Below are positions 471 to 62,474 of a DNA stretch of 64,000 bases, in pieces. The notes below the pieces were generated by a model. It saw only the letters and a list, made by a program, of their open reading frames with translations, was not told the DNA's origin and did not search any database. The DNA is from a phage. How positions within the stretch are numbered: the first letter of the stretch is position 1; each line of letters opens with the position of its first letter. The DNA is taken from sequence record PZ496580.1. One strand, written 5' to 3'. The position numbers and the translations under genes were made by a program.

Positions 471-2522
471 TTACATTTTAAATTTATCTGGCATTGCGTC
501 TACAGATACCAGATCAGCGATAAGCTGACGTAGAGTTGCCTTATCTGCTTTCTTACGTTCGGTTTTAGCTTCGGTAATGAAGCTGGAGAAAGAAAGGTCA
601 GAAGCAGGTTTAACAACACCTTCACGGATGAATGCATCACCGTCCGCGATCATCTCGCCAGATTCTTGTAATGCTGCCAGTTCATTTTTGTTCATAATAT
701 GTGCCTCAATGTAATAAGTTTCTTGTGAATCCGTTGATGCCGTAGCACGAGTTACCGTATCAAAGGATAACACAACACCGCGAGGAAGTAAAATCTCGCA
801 TTCTTTGTAAGCAAATGCCTTGTTACCTACTGGCAATACAGGGATGTTTTCCGCGCCAGCGATAGAGAAAGCAACATTAGCGCCACCTTCACCGCGAGAT
901 CCCGCCATAGAATCAACACCAGCAACGGCACTAGCCACGTTTGCATTCCACCCACCAAAAATATTAGGTGCAAGGGAAGTGCTCACATAGTTTTTAAAGT
1001 AAAACGCTTTTTGCTTACGTGCAGTTTCCCACATTTGAGACCGGAAGTCCATACCACGATACAGAATAGTACCAGGATCAAGTTTAACGCCATAGTTAGA
1101 GAAGGCATTATCCAGTGCATCACACATCTTGACCAATTCTTCTGGGTCTGCGATGCCATCAAACTCTTCCAGCTTACGATCGGTTAGGAAGTTGTTCATA
1201 TTGATGTATGCTGCATCGGCATATTCGCTCAACACAAAACCTTCCGCGCCAGGCAGGTCAAGATCAATATCTGCCATCATTTCACCCATGTTGCTAGCAA
1301 TTGCTTCAAACATACCGGAAGCAACATTACGCAGGGCATCGGTTTTAATCTGCGTGATGTGACTACGAAGCATTTCAGCTTTTACATCTGCTGGCATAGA
1401 CTGGTCTACTCGATCCATTGCTAAGGCAGTGATCTTGTTTTCGAATACTTCCTCGTTCATGATTTCTTTTAAGCGTTTGATTGATGCTGCGATAACTTCC
1501 GCAGACAACGGATCATATTGATCCTGAACTTTTACCAGTTCGCTTACTGCGTATTTTGCATCGGCCTCGCTTTCAAAAATAGTACGCATGAAACCATAGC
1601 GAGTGATAATATCACTTGTCCAATCATTCAGAGAACGCGCGGTTGAACGTTCTAAGGCTTGACGGTCAATCAGAGTATTAAACTGTTTCTTAGGTTCGGC
1701 TTCGGTGATATCTTCTTCCGGTTTAAGATTAATTTTTTCTGGATGATTCACATAGTCGCTGTTATAGGTCGCTTGAGTTTTCAGCATTTCTTCTTTAGTC
1801 AAACGAGATTTAGCCGCTACGCGTTGTTCTGCTTCCGCGTTTCGTTCTTCTTCTGACACAAGACTAGCCGCATACGCTTCATCTTTAGTCAGAGATTCGC
1901 CAGTAGCCTTAGATACCCAGCGATCACCTAAATCACTTTCTACTTTAGTGAACAAGGATTCATCAAGTTTAATCCCTTTAATCTTATCAATCGCCATCCC
2001 GCGACGTTTGACAACAACTAAAGCGATCTTTTTGCTGGTCATTACTTCCTGCTGGAATACTTCAAACTTCGGTGTACGACGCACCAAACGCTCTATAACG
2101 CGCTTAACCAGTTCGGTCTTACCTTTCATGCGGGATACGTTAAAACGGAACATAACAGCGTCTAATTGCGCTTTACGGGCTGTTTCCATAACCACATCAA
2201 AAGCACTTGCCATAACTGCAATCGGGTTATCGCCTAGACCATTTTTAAGCTGTACAATACGACCGCTTTTGTTCATTTCGCACAGTACAACATGTGCGGT
2301 CTTGTCACCCATACGAATGATTTTAGGTGTTTTGTTGGTGAAGTTACAAAGACGGACAATCACATCTTTATCGCGTGTCTGTACTGCAAAAAGCTGTTTA
2401 GGATTCTGCTTAGGCTTTAAGCACTGTACCGGGGCAATACTGCCAAAGTTTTCTTCCTCTTCTGTCAACAGCCATTTCTCGAAAGATTCAATCATTAGAT
2501 CGTCGATTTCTAAGTTAAACAT
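471..2522 (-). CDS. alt: Alt-like ADP-ribosyltransferase (virion-packaged RNAP-modifying enzyme)
   Basis: 683 aa (T4 Alt ~682 aa); C-terminal region has R (LYRGM), STS (YVSTSL) and ExE (KECEI) ART signature; sits after gene 30 as in T4. Confidence 0.7.
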   Translation of the reverse strand: MFNLEIDDLMIESFEKWLLTEEEENFGSIAPVQCLKPKQNPKQLFAVQTRDKDVIVRLCNFTNKTPKIIRMGDKTAHVVLCEMNKSGRIVQLKNGLGDNPIAVMASAFDVVMETARKAQLDAVMFRFNVSRMKGKTELVKRVIERLVRRTPKFEVFQQEVMTSKKIALVVVKRRGMAIDKIKGIKLDESLFTKVESDLGDRWVSKATGESLTKDEAYAASLVSEEERNAEAEQRVAAKSRLTKEEMLKTQATYNSDYVNHPEKINLKPEEDITEAEPKKQFNTLIDRQALERSTARSLNDWTSDIITRYGFMRTIFESEADAKYAVSELVKVQDQYDPLSAEVIAASIKRLKEIMNEEVFENKITALAMDRVDQSMPADVKAEMLRSHITQIKTDALRNVASGMFEAIASNMGEMMADIDLDLPGAEGFVLSEYADAAYINMNNFLTDRKLEEFDGIADPEELVKMCDALDNAFSNYGVKLDPGTILYRGMDFRSQMWETARKQKAFYFKNYVSTSLAPNIFGGWNANVASAVAGVDSMAGSRGEGGANVAFSIAGAENIPVLPVGNKAFAYKECEILLPRGVVLSFDTVTRATASTDSQETYYIEAHIMNKNELAALQESGEMIADGDAFIREGVVKPASDLSFSSFITEAKTERKKADKATLRQLIADLVSVDAMPDKFKM

Positions 2523-10337: not shown

Positions 10338-10814
10338 TTATTTTTCTTGATGCTCGCGCTCGTACTTTTCGAAATAAAATTCTACTGGCTGGTCGTGGAT
10401 TGAAAGCAAGCCAAAGCGTTTAGCCGCTCGTAATCCCATATTGCGCTGAATGTACTTCTGGAAGTTCTCGCGTATACACTTACGCCAGTATTCTAAGCCC
10501 ATACAGCTTTTATAAAGATTGCATTGCACACATGCCGGATTCATGTTATCAAGTATATCATGCTCCGGTTTATGCATTCCTACAACCTTATACTTCCACG
10601 ATCCATCATCGTTACGGGAAATGCGCCCATTTTCATCATAGACTACTTTTGAGCGTCGTAATACTGGTTTGATATGATCCGCGTGCCAGCGTTCTCCTAG
10701 TACCTCTCCGCAATAGGCACAACGTCCACCGTATTTCATTTTCAGGATCTGGCGTTGCTCTTTCTTTGACAATTTTTTAGGTTTAGGGGCTTTCGCCCCT
10801 TCATTATCACACAT
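10338..10814 (-). CDS. HNH endonuclease (free-standing, candidate homing endonuclease)
   Basis: 158 aa; CAYCGEV...HADHIKP...C..CN motif typical of HNH; start overlaps 3' end of ligase gene by 8 nt. Confidence 0.6.
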   Translation of the reverse strand: MCDNEGAKAPKPKKLSKKEQRQILKMKYGGRCAYCGEVLGERWHADHIKPVLRRSKVVYDENGRISRNDDGSWKYKVVGMHKPEHDILDNMNPACVQCNLYKSCMGLEYWRKCIRENFQKYIQRNMGLRAAKRFGLLSIHDQPVEFYFEKYEREHQEK

Positions 10815-12303
10815 CGAATACCTCTTTTACTGTATTTGCAGTGGTCTTGTCGTAGCGAATACGTTTGATGATCGGGAGAAATAAAGAGAACTCCGGTTCA
10901 TCTTCTTTACGTGATTTGCTGCGGATATACCCGTTGCATGTCATCTCAATGACTTTTCCGATCAGGTTATGACGGTCAGCCCATAACATTTCTCGGTCAA
11001 GTTCATTTCGACGATCGAACGGAATTACACGTTCAATACCATCATCACCTTTTTCGGTTGTGGTGTCGGTCAATCCCGATCCGGTGTTAGTCATCATTCG
11101 TCCGCACGCACTACGGACAGTAAAACCGCCTACCTTATTAGGATCTTTACTATGCGGATATACATCAACAATTTCCGCGTCGAAGTCAATCACTTCTTTA
11201 AATTTAACCTGATCTTTACTGCGACGATCTTCAAATACACCATGTAAATTTTTAAGGATAATACCTTCTAAGCCCATGTTTACATAGCGATGATATACTT
11301 CGCGAGCTTCATCTATATTGTTAACTACAGTGTTTTCGATTATCTGAACACGAGGATCGTTAAGTTCTTCAACAATCTGTTTTAGTTCTTCGAATCGATC
11401 TTTATATTGCTTCGTTGCTTTCTCGTTTCCGTAATACACATCACGGTCGATAACATCCCAGACAGTGTAAACAATACATTGGGCTTCTTCTTTTGGAATA
11501 GTTCCTTTCAGTGATTTGTTGAGGATGCCATTTCCGGTCTGACGATCTGCAACAACGGATTCTTTCACTGCTTCCGCTACTGGCGTTAATGGCATTTCCT
11601 CTTCTTCAAATATCCATGACAGAGTACCGTCATAAACGCTCTCAACGAAGTTCTGCGCTGGTGTTTGCGAAAGGGTAGGCATATATACCAATTCGCCATC
11701 TAGAACAATTCCACGTCCTCGTAGACGCTCTAAAACCGCAAACAAATCATCAAGCCCCTGATAGGTATTACCTGAACGGGTATAGATTGCTAATGTTTCC
11801 CCGTCAATATCAGCCATACCACGAGCGCCATCGCTTTTAAGTTGTGCATATGCAGGATATTTGATATTAGCAATGGCCTTATCAGAATATGACGATGCAA
11901 GGTGGCACGGTTGCTGGGGGATCAGTTTCTTCCATACCTTGTTTGCAGTGGTAGCGGAACAACCGCATTCCAGGTCACGATTCAGGACCATCATTGCAAC
12001 TTTAGCATCATCTTCTGACAAGCAAGTCAGAGTATCGGTAACTAGCTGTAATGCTGCATTGCCAGTTACTTGACGTGTGGCAAGTTTATTTTTAAAGACT
12101 TGTAATGCACCGGATAAAGACAATACAGACGAATATCGCGATGGTTTATCGTATTTCTTTACGCCAAACGTAACCTGTTTGCAATATGCCAGATAAAAGC
12201 ATTCTTTCAGAGTGTCATTGCTTGCTGATTCTTTCAGGATCTTTTCTTTCAGCGATGTTTTGTCTGTTGCTGCAAGCTGATTAATGATATTAAGAATTGA
12301 CAT
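10807..12303 (-). CDS. 30: ATP-dependent DNA ligase
   Basis: ~498 aa; collinear with T4 gp30 from memory (KADGARC-type adenylation Lys region LKSDGARG, GLEGIILKN, C-terminal IKRIRYDKT); track start is GTG, likely true ATG 6 nt downstream. Confidence 0.85.
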   Translation of the reverse strand: MSILNIINQLAATDKTSLKEKILKESASNDTLKECFYLAYCKQVTFGVKKYDKPSRYSSVLSLSGALQVFKNKLATRQVTGNAALQLVTDTLTCLSEDDAKVAMMVLNRDLECGCSATTANKVWKKLIPQQPCHLASSYSDKAIANIKYPAYAQLKSDGARGMADIDGETLAIYTRSGNTYQGLDDLFAVLERLRGRGIVLDGELVYMPTLSQTPAQNFVESVYDGTLSWIFEEEEMPLTPVAEAVKESVVADRQTGNGILNKSLKGTIPKEEAQCIVYTVWDVIDRDVYYGNEKATKQYKDRFEELKQIVEELNDPRVQIIENTVVNNIDEAREVYHRYVNMGLEGIILKNLHGVFEDRRSKDQVKFKEVIDFDAEIVDVYPHSKDPNKVGGFTVRSACGRMMTNTGSGLTDTTTEKGDDGIERVIPFDRRNELDREMLWADRHNLIGKVIEMTCNGYIRSKSRKEDEPEFSLFLPIIKRIRYDKTTANTVKEVFDV

Positions 12304-12769
12304 TTTCACCTCGTTTTGTTAAACGTTCACGAATATCATTGAGGATACTACAAAATTCTGATTCGGTCAATATGGTCTTTAACGGATCAGTTCCACCTAT
12401 GCTATGACGTAATTTCTTATTTCCGGTAGCGAGTAACGCTTTACAAAATTCCGGGTTATTCCTTGCCATCGTAACAAATGCCAGATGTACCAGTCTGTAA
12501 TAATGCTCACTCATTCGATGAATCGGGCGACCCTGAAAATATAACATGTGATTCTCTATCTTTTCAGTCCTTCCGGTTCTTTTTGCTTTGCCACCGTACA
12601 TCAAAAAGATTTCTCTTTGTCTCTGAGGGTTCTTAAATCTTAGCCCCTGTAAAAATCCTTCTGTGCTGTTAATATCGCAACCAAATAGACGGAATGGTCT
12701 TTTATTGAAATTACTCAATTCACCAGATGGATAAGGTCCACCCGCATAGATATCAATTTCAGAAGTCAT
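12290..12769 (-). CDS. NADAR (YbiA/DUF1768)-like protein, candidate ADP-ribose-processing glycohydrolase
   Basis: 159 aa; GELSNF, STEGFLQGLRF and KALLATGNKKL motifs resemble NADAR family signatures. Confidence 0.5.
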   Translation of the reverse strand: MTSEIDIYAGGPYPSGELSNFNKRPFRLFGCDINSTEGFLQGLRFKNPQRQREIFLMYGGKAKRTGRTEKIENHMLYFQGRPIHRMSEHYYRLVHLAFVTMARNNPEFCKALLATGNKKLRHSIGGTDPLKTILTESEFCSILNDIRERLTKRGENVNS

Positions 12770-12923
12770 TGAAACTAATCTCGCTAATCAGAGAGAACGG
12801 ATCATAATCGTCATGAGGAATATCGATAGTAATCGAATGAGGATTTACCCATACACCAAACTGGTCTTCTTCGGTGAATACTTCGGTATGGATTTCGTGG
12901 ATGTTTACATTCATAGTTTTCAT
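12759..12923 (-). CDS. hypothetical small protein (54 aa, below cutoff)
   Basis: stop overlaps ATG of NADAR gene; weak AAGGAA SD. Confidence 0.3.
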   Translation of the reverse strand: MKTMNVNIHEIHTEVFTEEDQFGVWVNPHSITIDIPHDDYDPFSLISEISFNDF

Positions 12924-12977
12924 AATAAAAATTCCTTAATAATCAATAACTTACAAAATCATATAGCCAAAATATAG

Positions 12978-12998
12978 GCGGGATTATTACCCGCCGTT
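12978..12998 (-). terminator. intrinsic terminator after gene 31
   Basis: approx; GGCGGG-loop-CCCGCC then U-rich tail on minus strand. Confidence 0.45.
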
Positions 12999-57635: not shown

Positions 57636-57949
57636 TATCCTAAAATCCTCACCTTGCGAACACAGATAGTATTGAGTTCTCGCCGTACCCGTTCTTTTTC
57701 ATATTCAGGAATTTTGTATTCTATACCATCCCGAACAATTTCAGAAGATCGGATTATACCAAATTTTCGTTTAGGCACAACCTTGTATTTCGGTTCACCT
57801 GCCAATAGACTCTCACAATAATCTATCTGATCACACATTGACGCTAACGCTGCATCATGTGTTTCGCAAGTTAGGACGCGACCCTTCGCGTCCACTGAGT
57901 ATTGAAAGAATCCGTCTTTATCACGATAACATACAGCAAATACATGCAT
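57635..57949 (-). CDS. hypothetical protein (104 aa)
   Basis: ORF track; coupled to dda start. Confidence 0.4.
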   Translation of the reverse strand: MHVFAVCYRDKDGFFQYSVDAKGRVLTCETHDAALASMCDQIDYCESLLAGEPKYKVVPKRKFGIIRSSEIVRDGIEYKIPEYEKERVRRELNTICVRKVRILG

Positions 57950-58704
57950 TATAAACCTACCTTCGCTTTCATCAATTCAATCCACGACGCATCAATCGGA
58001 AGCCCGTATTTCACGCGTTCTTTTTGTGCTGGCGTTAAGTTCTCATACTTAGAAAGAGATTCAATCAAAACGCTGGTATATTTTAGCACGATTTCGGTAT
58101 TGTTTGCAATAGCCTTAAGTTTTTCTTCTTTCTTGTTGATTTCGCTAAGGGCTTGCTTGAGATCTGCAATTTTCTGATAACGTTCTTCCATACGGAAGAG
58201 AGTATTTTTAATCGCTCGCTCGGCTGCCTCTGCTTTCTCCGGTTCGTTGTGCTTTTTGTGGCGCTCGATTGCTAATTTCTTTTCTTCGATTGCCATTTCC
58301 TGATTTTTGATGCGATTCTCGTTAAGTTCGATCCACTCGATGTACTTCGCACGTAGGGCAATTTCATCATCAGAAAGTTTACCGTTAGTTCCTAGTTCCT
58401 GGATCTCTTTAAGAGATTCGATAGTGTGATTGCCACGGAAAGAATTGTATTTCAGTTTAACCGGAATTACATTGCCATCAACATATCCCAGATTGCAATC
58501 AATGCGCTCTAAGGAGAGTCCGTCATCACCTTCACCGAAAGCCTCACCTGAATAGGCGCAATGAGTCTGACGGTAAATGTTACGCACAGTGACTAAGCTC
58601 ATAGAGAAGTCTTTGTTGCGACGTGAAGCGCCAGCCATGATAGAGTTCAGACGGAAAACAACCAGCGCCAATTCTTCGTTAGATTTAAAAGCAAACAGTT
58701 TCAT
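57949..58704 (-). CDS. hypothetical protein with degenerate HNH-like segment and C-terminal coiled coil (srd position)
   Basis: 251 aa; CAYSGE...LSLERID.N.GYVDGNV resembles an HNH-type motif; rest Lys/Glu-rich helical. Confidence 0.35.
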   Translation of the reverse strand: MKLFAFKSNEELALVVFRLNSIMAGASRRNKDFSMSLVTVRNIYRQTHCAYSGEAFGEGDDGLSLERIDCNLGYVDGNVIPVKLKYNSFRGNHTIESLKEIQELGTNGKLSDDEIALRAKYIEWIELNENRIKNQEMAIEEKKLAIERHKKHNEPEKAEAAERAIKNTLFRMEERYQKIADLKQALSEINKKEEKLKAIANNTEIVLKYTSVLIESLSKYENLTPAQKERVKYGLPIDASWIELMKAKVGL

Positions 58705-58765: not shown

Positions 58766-59269
58766 TTAAATTAAAGAAAATTTGTAAATCTCTATCAGAT
58801 CGCCGTTACATGCGTAAACTTCCTCGATCTCATCAAGGATCATGGTCGTCCCTGTCTTGTATATGCACTCGCGCTCATCCGCCAACATAGCATACAAAGA
58901 CAGTCGAGTAGTCGGATTGTCATACTCTTTAGACACCACTCGATCAATAGCATGTTCGTAATAATTCATGCAAGGCTTGGTAGGTTTTATTGCAATAATC
59001 TTTCCTGTTGCATAAACATCGGTTGCAAAGTCCTCTGCTGTTGATTGCAGTGGCGTAAAGCTCATAGGACGCTCTACAACGAAAGAATCACCTACAATTA
59101 AGGTATCCAGCTTACGGCCTTCTCTTTTGCTCACACCGCGATACAAGGCTTCATGATGCACTAACCGTTCAGTCTTTTCAATCAATCCATTAAGGATCGA
59201 CATATCGATATTTTCTTTAGAGTTCATCACTTCATCAATGATGTTAAGTTCTTCTGGTGTAAATTGCAT
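58766..59269 (-). CDS. ModA/ModB-like ADP-ribosyltransferase
   Basis: 167 aa; ordered R (ALYRG), ST (QSTAED) and ExE (DERECI) motifs with spacing typical of R-S-E ARTs; lies between dda side and gene 56 as T4 mod genes do. Confidence 0.5.
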   Translation of the reverse strand: MQFTPEELNIIDEVMNSKENIDMSILNGLIEKTERLVHHEALYRGVSKREGRKLDTLIVGDSFVVERPMSFTPLQSTAEDFATDVYATGKIIAIKPTKPCMNYYEHAIDRVVSKEYDNPTTRLSLYAMLADERECIYKTGTTMILDEIEEVYACNGDLIEIYKFSLI

Positions 59270-61838: not shown

Positions 61839-62474
61839 TCAGGCGAACGTAGAAAGCAAATGTTTCGTTTCTTTCAGTTGTCGTTCAAGATCTTTTCGTT
61901 TCTCTTTAAGTTGCATTTTAGCATTATTTCGCTGTTTTTCAACATCTTTATCAATATGCTTAGTCCAATTATCAATATCAGAATAAGTTGGCATACCCAA
62001 TTCTAGACCTAATGCGGTTGGATACAGGGTAACAGTCCATAGACCGCTAATCTTCTTAAACAGGTCTGGGTTTAGTGTACTACCTACATCTTCCGGTGTC
62101 AACTCTTTTTCTTCTTTCAGTGGTGGGATCTCGTCATATGGTTCCAGTGCATTTACTTTAATATCAGATACCTCATCAAAGAATCCGCGTACATCCGCAG
62201 GAAATACACAAGCAATTTCCCAACCGTGATCACGCAGAGAAGTAATATTTTTCACTCCCCCACCATGTGTGATGATTGATGTGACATTGCCATCAAGGTC
62301 CACCGAATTTACGAGAAATGGCTTATCGTCTGTCAGATCATTATAAAACTGTGCTTCGGCTGTAGTCATCTCCAGAAACAGATCTCGGATCGGACGACCA
62401 TCAGGTGCGTTACCTTCCTTGAGAGTATAAAAACGACTTACGATCCATTTTGGCGGTAAAGCATTAGCGATCAT
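61839..62474 (-). CDS. hypothetical protein (211 aa)
   Basis: ORF track; between genes 41 and 61. Confidence 0.45.
   Translation of the reverse strand: MIANALPPKWIVSRFYTLKEGNAPDGRPIRDLFLEMTTAEAQFYNDLTDDKPFLVNSVDLDGNVTSIITHGGGVKNITSLRDHGWEIACVFPADVRGFFDEVSDIKVNALEPYDEIPPLKEEKELTPEDVGSTLNPDLFKKISGLWTVTLYPTALGLELGMPTYSDIDNWTKHIDKDVEKQRNNAKMQLKEKRKDLERQLKETKHLLSTFA

Follow-up and report, generated by a model that had tools for sequence, protein, structure and literature searches.

A Krischvirus orthologue of T4 gene 30.3 (adfN), predicted to encode a NADAR-family anti-DarTG1 enzyme

Gene 30.3 and its locus

The phage DNA analysed here is a window of 64,000 nucleotides (nt) from sequence record PZ496580.1, with positions counted from the first letter of the window, and it carries the Krischvirus orthologue of gene 30.3, or adfN, of phage T4. 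The gene (12290..12769, minus strand, marked - below) runs from an ATG start to a TAA stop and encodes a polypeptide of 159 amino acids, a single-domain phage NADAR that is predicted to act as an ADP-ribosyl-guanine glycohydrolase. The translation contains the motifs SGELSNF (residues 15-21), STEGFLQGLRF (residues 35-45) and KALLATGNKKL (residues 110-120). An original prediction for this DNA had pointed to an open reading frame (ORF) of this size with the sequences GELSNF, STEGFLQGLRF and KALLATGNKKL and an overlap with the start of a DNA ligase gene, and all of these features are indeed present. The 1.6 kb around the gene share 97-98% nucleotide identity (ca. 97.6%) with 60 Krischvirus genomes, including RB49, Phi1, JSE and GEC-3S, and on these grounds the window is assigned to the RB49-like Escherichia coli phages of this genus. 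The RB49 record lists the same gene as '30.3, hypothetical protein', with gene 30 (ligase) on one side and a small ORF followed by gene 31 on the other; the two gp30.3 proteins are 99.4% identical.

Comparison of the window gene with its RB49 counterpart revealed 11 synonymous nucleotide differences and a single non-synonymous one, which corresponds to a ratio of non-synonymous to synonymous substitution rates (dN/dS) of 0.023. For a homologue from a metagenomic locus (L003), whose protein is 68% identical, dN/dS is ca. 0.12 with dS near saturation. Gene 30.3 is under strong purifying selection (dN/dS 0.02-0.12). The locus L003 has the same gene order, with rnlA, spanin genes, pseT, cd, gene 31, an ORF of 54 amino acids, gene 30.3 and gene 30. 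Because of the low dN/dS, the high score with the family model and the wide occurrence of homologues (see below), 12290..12769 is a gene and not a chance ORF.

Downstream of 30.3 lies gene 30 (10807..12303, -), predicted from a match to PF01068 (E = 4e-22) and from the RB49 annotation to encode an ATP-dependent DNA ligase. Its reading frame extends over 10807..12309 when read from a GTG codon, but the start used in RB49 is the ATG two codons downstream, at position 12303 of the window and preceded by GAGG. This ATG is located inside the 3' end of 30.3, so a ligase start at 12303 gives an overlap of 14 nt with the 30.3 stop. Upstream, an ORF of 54 amino acids that is called 31.-1 in RB49 (12759..12923, -; PHROG 15277, function unknown) overlaps with its stop the start of 30.3 by 11 nt, an arrangement that suggests translational coupling of the two genes. 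In L003 the 54-residue ORF is kept in the same place at 40% identity.

A terminator-like GC hairpin with a T-run (12977..12995, -; GGCGGG-7 nt-CCCGCC) was found by a consensus scan directly after gene 31 and upstream of the 31.-1/30.3/30 block, and it separates the two; in the records of several related phages a terminator is marked in the same stretch. No convincing match to a sigma-70-type promoter was found between this hairpin and the start of 31.-1 (12923), and the promoter scan as a whole did no better than chance, with 15 sites where 13.2 were expected. Transcription of adfN and the ligase gene may occur by read-through or from a phage-specific promoter. On the other side of the block, immediately downstream of the ligase gene and overlapping its stop by 8 nt, is an HNH endonuclease gene (PF01844; 10338..10814, -). 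The RB49 record remarks on the likeness of its product to a Salmonella plasmid protein, and the gene is possibly a mobile homing-type insertion.

Family membership and predicted fold

The window protein matches the PF08010 model (Phage_30_3, 'Bacteriophage protein GP30.3') over profile positions 2-138 of 138 with a score of 132.1 bits against a cut-off of 36 (E = 1.5e-38). It also matches PHROG 652 (E = 4e-45), the same PHROG that is assigned to gp30.3 in the T4 record. A BLASTP alignment with T4 gp30.3 covers residues 3-150 against 2-152 at 38% identity (E = 6e-30), and in the window 30.3 is the sole match both of T4 gp30.3 and of the family hidden Markov model. The gene order 31, 31.-1, 30.3, 30 is shared by the window, RB49 and L003, and in T4 the order is 31 ... 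30.4, 30.3, 30.2, 30.1, 30. From these comparisons we regard the window protein as a reciprocal, single-copy, full-length orthologue of T4 gp30.3 located in the gene 31-gene 30 interval, and sequence, synteny and architecture all place it in the PF08010 family of gp30.3-type phage NADARs (AdfN). Homologues are widespread: tblastn detected them in 1510 of 50,697 phage records, which include phages of Escherichia, Klebsiella, Acinetobacter, Vibrio, Aeromonas, Sinorhizobium and Caulobacter, and a search with the family profile matched 1675 protein clusters at the 50% identity level.

The similarity to T4 AdfN extends to the minimal, core-only architecture (152 amino acids in T4 and 159 in the window), the catalytic Glu, the signature His, an intact C-terminal helix and the location in the interval from gene 31 to gene 30, with transcription from the same strand. 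Differences are found in the immediate surroundings. Since the T4 genes 30.1 and 30.2 are absent, 30.3 of the window abuts the ligase gene directly. Furthermore, the product of 31.-1 shows no similarity to gp30.4, the protein that holds the equivalent position in T4.

The original prediction had described the protein as NADAR-like and proposed a structure-based search as a check. An AlphaFold2 model built with 13 homologues is of very high confidence, with a mean predicted local distance difference test (pLDDT) score of 93.8 and a predicted template modelling (pTM) score of 0.88, and a structure-based search with this model returned the NADAR fold and nothing else, in agreement with that description. 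Foldseek matched the model to 2b3w (E. coli YbiA) at E = 2e-6, and in a viral structure library the close gp30.3 homologues were followed by dozens of proteins annotated as NADAR. The predicted fold is that of the YbiA/NADAR alpha+beta proteins, in which a helical core is flanked by two small beta-sheets. According to the model, and on the strength of the catalytic Glu, the protein belongs to the NADAR superfamily. DSSP assigned a C-terminal alpha-helix to residues 136-157 of the model (12299..12364, -). The alignment reaches the last residue of T4 gp30.3 and the window gene has no frameshift or early stop, and the C-terminal helix is intact.

Other searches were less informative. The NCBIfam model for a 'NADAR family anti-phage protein' gave a sub-threshold score of 13 bits against a cut-off of 240 and was not used as evidence. 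A single-sequence phmmer search against the PDB returned no NADAR protein; its top match, a D-alanine carrier-protein ligase (7vhv, E = 7e-4, residues 45-151), is considered spurious because it concerns an unrelated region and has no support from the fold search or the profile search. Phmmer matches to PDB entries at E values around 1e-3 can thus arise by chance.

Several metagenomic proteins (P0069, P0100, P0157, P0103, P0129 and P0014) contain gp30.3-family domains fused to BspA-type leucine-rich repeats, a D-Ala-D-Ala ligase, prolipoprotein diacylglyceryl transferase (Lgt) or a FtsW/RodA-like membrane domain, and one of them carries the gp30.3-family domains in tandem. Some of these fusions may be gene-calling artefacts; if they are real, the gp30.3 branch of the NADARs would be used well beyond phage counter-defence.

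Active-site residues and relation to other NADARs

In characterised NADARs the catalytic Glu (E43 in PnNADAR, E88 in the E. coli C7 enzyme and E36 in the T4 protein) contacts the distal ribose (PMC11825919, PMC11543638). A Lys seven residues further on (K50, K95 and K43, respectively) binds the phosphates and the adenine of ADP-ribose (PMC11543638), and the identity of a residue in the last strand distinguishes YbiA-type enzymes (Glu) from DarG1-type (Asp) and phage gp30.3-type NADARs (His) (PMC11543638, PMC11125620). In the window protein Glu37 (codon GAA, 12659..12661, -) aligns with T4 AdfN E36 in the pairwise alignment and with YbiA E48 in the profile match, and is equivalent to PnNADAR E43 and E. 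coli C7 E88. The phage NADAR signature is found as His122 (codon CAT, 12404..12406, -) in the last strand, in the motif KLRHSIGG (VLKHSI in T4); this His is invariant in the homologue alignment. Where the other enzymes have the conserved Lys (T4 K43, PnNADAR K50, E. coli C7 K95), the window protein has Arg44 (codon AGA, 12638..12640, -).

A census of 170 aligned family domains found the Glu in 162, the His in 158 and the Lys in 159, whereas Arg is present at the Lys site in six. The combination of Arg with both the Glu and the His is confined to the RB49-like clade (the window protein, P0001, and P0002, which is 68% identical) and a single further cluster, P0122. Arg44 is also retained in L003, where the gene is under selection, and the Arg therefore represents a stable, selected state rather than a recent lesion. 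This clade-specific Lys-to-Arg substitution at a catalytic-site residue is the only new element of the present analysis.

The DarG1 or DarT1-associated NADAR antitoxins of the BC4488 family, such as those of G. lovleyi (8bat) and E. coli C7, differ from the window protein in several respects. Gene 30.3 has no adjacent darT gene, its neighbours being the 54-residue ORF and the genes for DNA ligase, the HNH endonuclease and gp31. The last-strand Asp of the DarG1 type is replaced by His122. The N-terminal extension of DarG1, which forms an electropositive DNA channel, is lacking as well: only 137 of the 219 residues of 8bat could be aligned, at 11% identity. On these comparisons (no DarT neighbour, His instead of Asp, no N-terminal extension) the window protein is not a DarG1 antitoxin, and T4 AdfN itself cannot replace DarG1 in uninfected cells (PMC11825919). 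AdfN-Bas32 and AdfN-Bas60, from T5-like phages and Vequintavirinae, are likewise orphan NADARs of phages, active against DarTG1 but not against DarTG2 (PMC11825919). They represent separate NADAR branches of independent origin, distinct from the gp30.3 branch in which the window protein falls; they need no T-even context and, unlike T4 AdfN, give rescue when co-expressed with DarT1 in uninfected cells.

Predicted role in infection

The function of the T4 protein is well documented. From a comparison of genomes, de Souza and Aravind (2012, as cited in later papers) assigned the product of T4 30.3 to the NADAR superfamily. In 2024, T4 gp30.3 was found to strip ADP-ribose from guanosine, not from thymidine, in DNA in vitro, and to be unable to rescue uninfected cells from DarT1 (PMC11125620). 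The Methods of that paper give the construct of T4 phage NADAR (gp30.3) as residues 1-208; T4 gp30.3 has 152 amino acids and T4 gp61.2 has 208, and the figure is probably a typographical slip or reflects tag numbering. Johannesman et al. (Nat Commun 2025; PMC11825919) mapped the DarTG1 resistance of T-even phages to 30.3, which they renamed adfN (anti-DarT factor NADAR) and found to be necessary and sufficient for this resistance. Their purified T4 AdfN de-ADP-ribosylates DarT1-modified DNA, does not bind DarT1 and has no effect on the thymidine-directed DarTG2. Rescue is lowered by each of the mutations E36A and K43A and by C-terminal truncation, with partial rescue remaining in K43A. In the RB69 allele of adfN a frameshift removes the C-terminal helix and inactivates the protein, which correlates with sensitivity to DarTG1. 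The same study reported that full effectiveness of T4 AdfN requires infection by a T-even phage and does not depend on cytosine modification. An independent transposon screen found T4 30.3 to be essential only on DarTG1 hosts and identified the macrodomain protein encoded by tk.4 (AdfM) as the DarTG2 counterpart (bioRxiv 10.1101/2025.11.20.689424). The T4 NADAR also removes guanosine-linked ADP-ribose (G-ADPr) from RNA (PMC11833690), and cytosine-linked ADP-ribose (C-ADPr) is not removed in vitro (PMC12945103).

In agreement with these data, we propose that the window gene acts as an anti-DarTG1 enzyme in its own phage, as 30.3/adfN does in T4, and assign this proposal a probability of about 0.8. 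The gene, its family, fold, key residues, synteny and selection come from the present analysis, and activity, guanosine specificity and the role against DarTG1 are taken from the work on T4 AdfN. The step in between, namely that an RB49-type protein with 38% identity, with Arg in place of the conserved Lys and from a phage that is not a member of the Tevenvirinae acts like T4 AdfN, is what we infer. According to this proposal, host DarT1 would ADP-ribosylate guanosines in the replicating phage DNA. The minimal, core-only N-glycosidase most likely binds the ADP-ribose moiety, with Arg44 contacting the phosphates and the adenine and with Glu37 and His122 flanking the distal ribose. The enzyme would then hydrolyse the N-glycosidic bond between ribose and guanine, yielding unmodified DNA on which replication can proceed, and it would provide an orphan 'antitoxin-like' counter-defence that operates without toxin binding. 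The original prediction had proposed removal of ADP-ribose from guanine as an anti-DarTG activity. This interpretation was right, since the T4 orthologue does exactly so, but the gene is not a new candidate, being 30.3 of RB49, and the expected target is specifically DarTG1 and not DarTG2.

Some observations weigh against the proposed role. With the general NADAR model PF08719 the window protein remains below threshold (13.4 bits against a cut-off of 35.1, E = 0.092), as would be expected of a branch for which Pfam keeps a separate model. Family members P0100 and P0104 match PF08719 at E values of ca. 1e-4, and P0008 has a precomputed PF08719 hit. A profile of 13 homologues searched against the PDB found YbiA only, at E = 0.042 over 55 residues, which is weak when taken alone and consistent with the fold result. 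In view of these weak sequence links, superfamily membership rests on the predicted fold and on the published classification. Our literature search found no DarTG test of RB49 or of any other Krischvirus, and Krischvirus is outside the Tevenvirinae, while T4 AdfN fully works only in T-even infection. We looked for a conserved partner that could lie behind this T-even dependence. The ORF 31.-1 is conserved in the RB49-like clade but unrelated to T4 gp30.4, and there is therefore no conserved two-gene module. The last point is Arg44 itself, a natural Lys-to-Arg variant that keeps the spacing from the Glu and is still basic. In the E. coli C7 NADAR the corresponding K95R substitution left in vitro hydrolysis intact and abolished rescue from DarT1 in vivo (PMC11543638), and therefore the in vivo potency of the Arg44 protein could be lower or tuned differently.

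Taken further, this argument leads to an enzyme that folds as a NADAR and is able to catalyse the reaction, but that Arg44 makes a weak or ineffective anti-DarT1 factor in vivo, so that the gene would be kept for another substrate or for a DarT1 variant. Besides the K95R phenotype, this explanation can draw on the rarity of Arg at the Lys site and on the known separation of in vitro activity and in vivo protection among NADARs (PMC11125620). However, Arg44 is held under strong purifying selection in a clade whose members are as little as 68% identical, which speaks for a protein that functions with Arg, and T4 K43A still rescues in part. The K95R data moreover come from a distant, DarG1-type family and from a toxicity assay in uninfected cells that wild-type T4 AdfN fails too. 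We consider such an attenuated or retargeted enzyme unlikely. Lower still is the chance that the enzyme acts mainly on RNA, by clearing guanosine-ADPr from tRNA or mRNA, or on the product of another toxin, rather than on DarT1-modified DNA. All NADAR families tested, including that of T4, remove G-ADPr from RNA in vitro (PMC11833690; PMC12945103), and the 30.3 region, as in RB49, neighbours genes for RNA and DNA end repair (pseT polynucleotide kinase, RNA ligase 1 and DNA ligase). Against RNA as the main substrate it can be said that the only in vivo phenotype demonstrated for the T4 protein concerns DarTG1, a DNA modifier, that the T4 NADAR is less active on RNA than the DarG1-type enzyme (PMC11833690), and that no guanosine-specific ADP-ribosyltransferase defence of E. 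coli acting on RNA was found in the literature searched. [quoted passage not shown] That proposal is older than the biochemistry; adducts on DNA are substrates of T4 gp30.3, which also makes the phage resistant to DarTG1, and no activity on soluble signals was reported for the gp30.3 family in the literature searched, which makes this function very improbable for the window protein.

The original prediction further noted that the window encodes two ADP-ribosyltransferases, Alt and a ModA-like protein, and suggested that the phage possesses both writer and eraser activities. The alt gene is present as an ORF for an Alt-like ADP-ribosyltransferase of 683 amino acids (471..2522, -; PF03496, E = 2e-9). 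The other gene (58766..59269, -) encodes a 167-residue ADP-ribosyltransferase that does belong to the Mod family (PHROG 832, E = 1e-20), but its similarity to T4 ModB (33% identity, E = 8e-11) exceeds that to ModA (23%, E = 2e-6). Where T4 carries two mod genes side by side, this phage appears to have a single one here, beside srd (57949..58704). Apart from the occurrence of these genes in the same window, the pairing finds no support. In the T4 record, ModA and ModB are described as enzymes that ADP-ribosylate RNA polymerase and other proteins. The activity demonstrated for NADARs, by contrast, is on ADP-ribose linked to guanine and, in some families, to cytosine in nucleic acids (PMC11543638, PMC12945103). 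The genes are 10-46 kb apart and do not form one unit, and the T4 adfN phenotype needs only host DarTG1 and is fully explained by host DarT1. We give hardly any credence to a role as eraser of the modifications that Alt and Mod of the phage itself would write. The same holds for a YbiA-type N-glycosidase that would act on riboflavin-pathway intermediates as metabolic housekeeping. YbiA (2b3w) has such a role in E. coli, and both YbiA and the P. nicotianae NADAR (8bau) are cellular enzymes, in contrast to the counter-defence proposed here. Both are only ca. 20% identical to the window protein and carry the last-strand Glu. With His122 at this defining position, the window protein is not of the YbiA type.

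Returning to the proposed anti-DarTG1 role, we also searched for AdfA (gp61.2), the second anti-DarT factor of T4. No AdfA homologue was found in the window, the best tblastn match having an E value of 0.38. An ORF of 211 amino acids (61839..62474, -; PHROG 16187, function unknown) between the helicase gene 41 and the primase gene 61 occupies roughly the position of T4 61.2 (AdfA, 208 amino acids); it was considered as AdfA and rejected, having no detectable similarity to T4 gp61.2. Judged from the window, AdfN may therefore be the main answer of this phage to DarT1.

As the function has been published and the gene is already named 30.3 in RB49, the assignment made here is already known, and nothing in it alters the current picture of the family. 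Its value for annotation is that most of the ca. 1500 phage records with the gene still list a 'hypothetical protein', which can be named adfN, anti-DarTG1 ADP-ribosylglycohydrolase. In phage therapy or when host range is to be predicted, a phage with an intact adfN would be expected to resist the defence of E. coli strains that carry DarTG1. The Lys-to-Arg variant is a minor structure-function point that lends itself to testing. It seems doubtful that Arg44 alters the behaviour of the enzyme, be it in kinetics, in the preferred adduct or nucleic-acid context, in activity towards DarT1 variants that T4 AdfN misses, or in independence of a T-even co-factor. If it does, however, the variant would offer a natural handle on the in vivo specificity of NADARs and on the T-even requirement of T4 AdfN.

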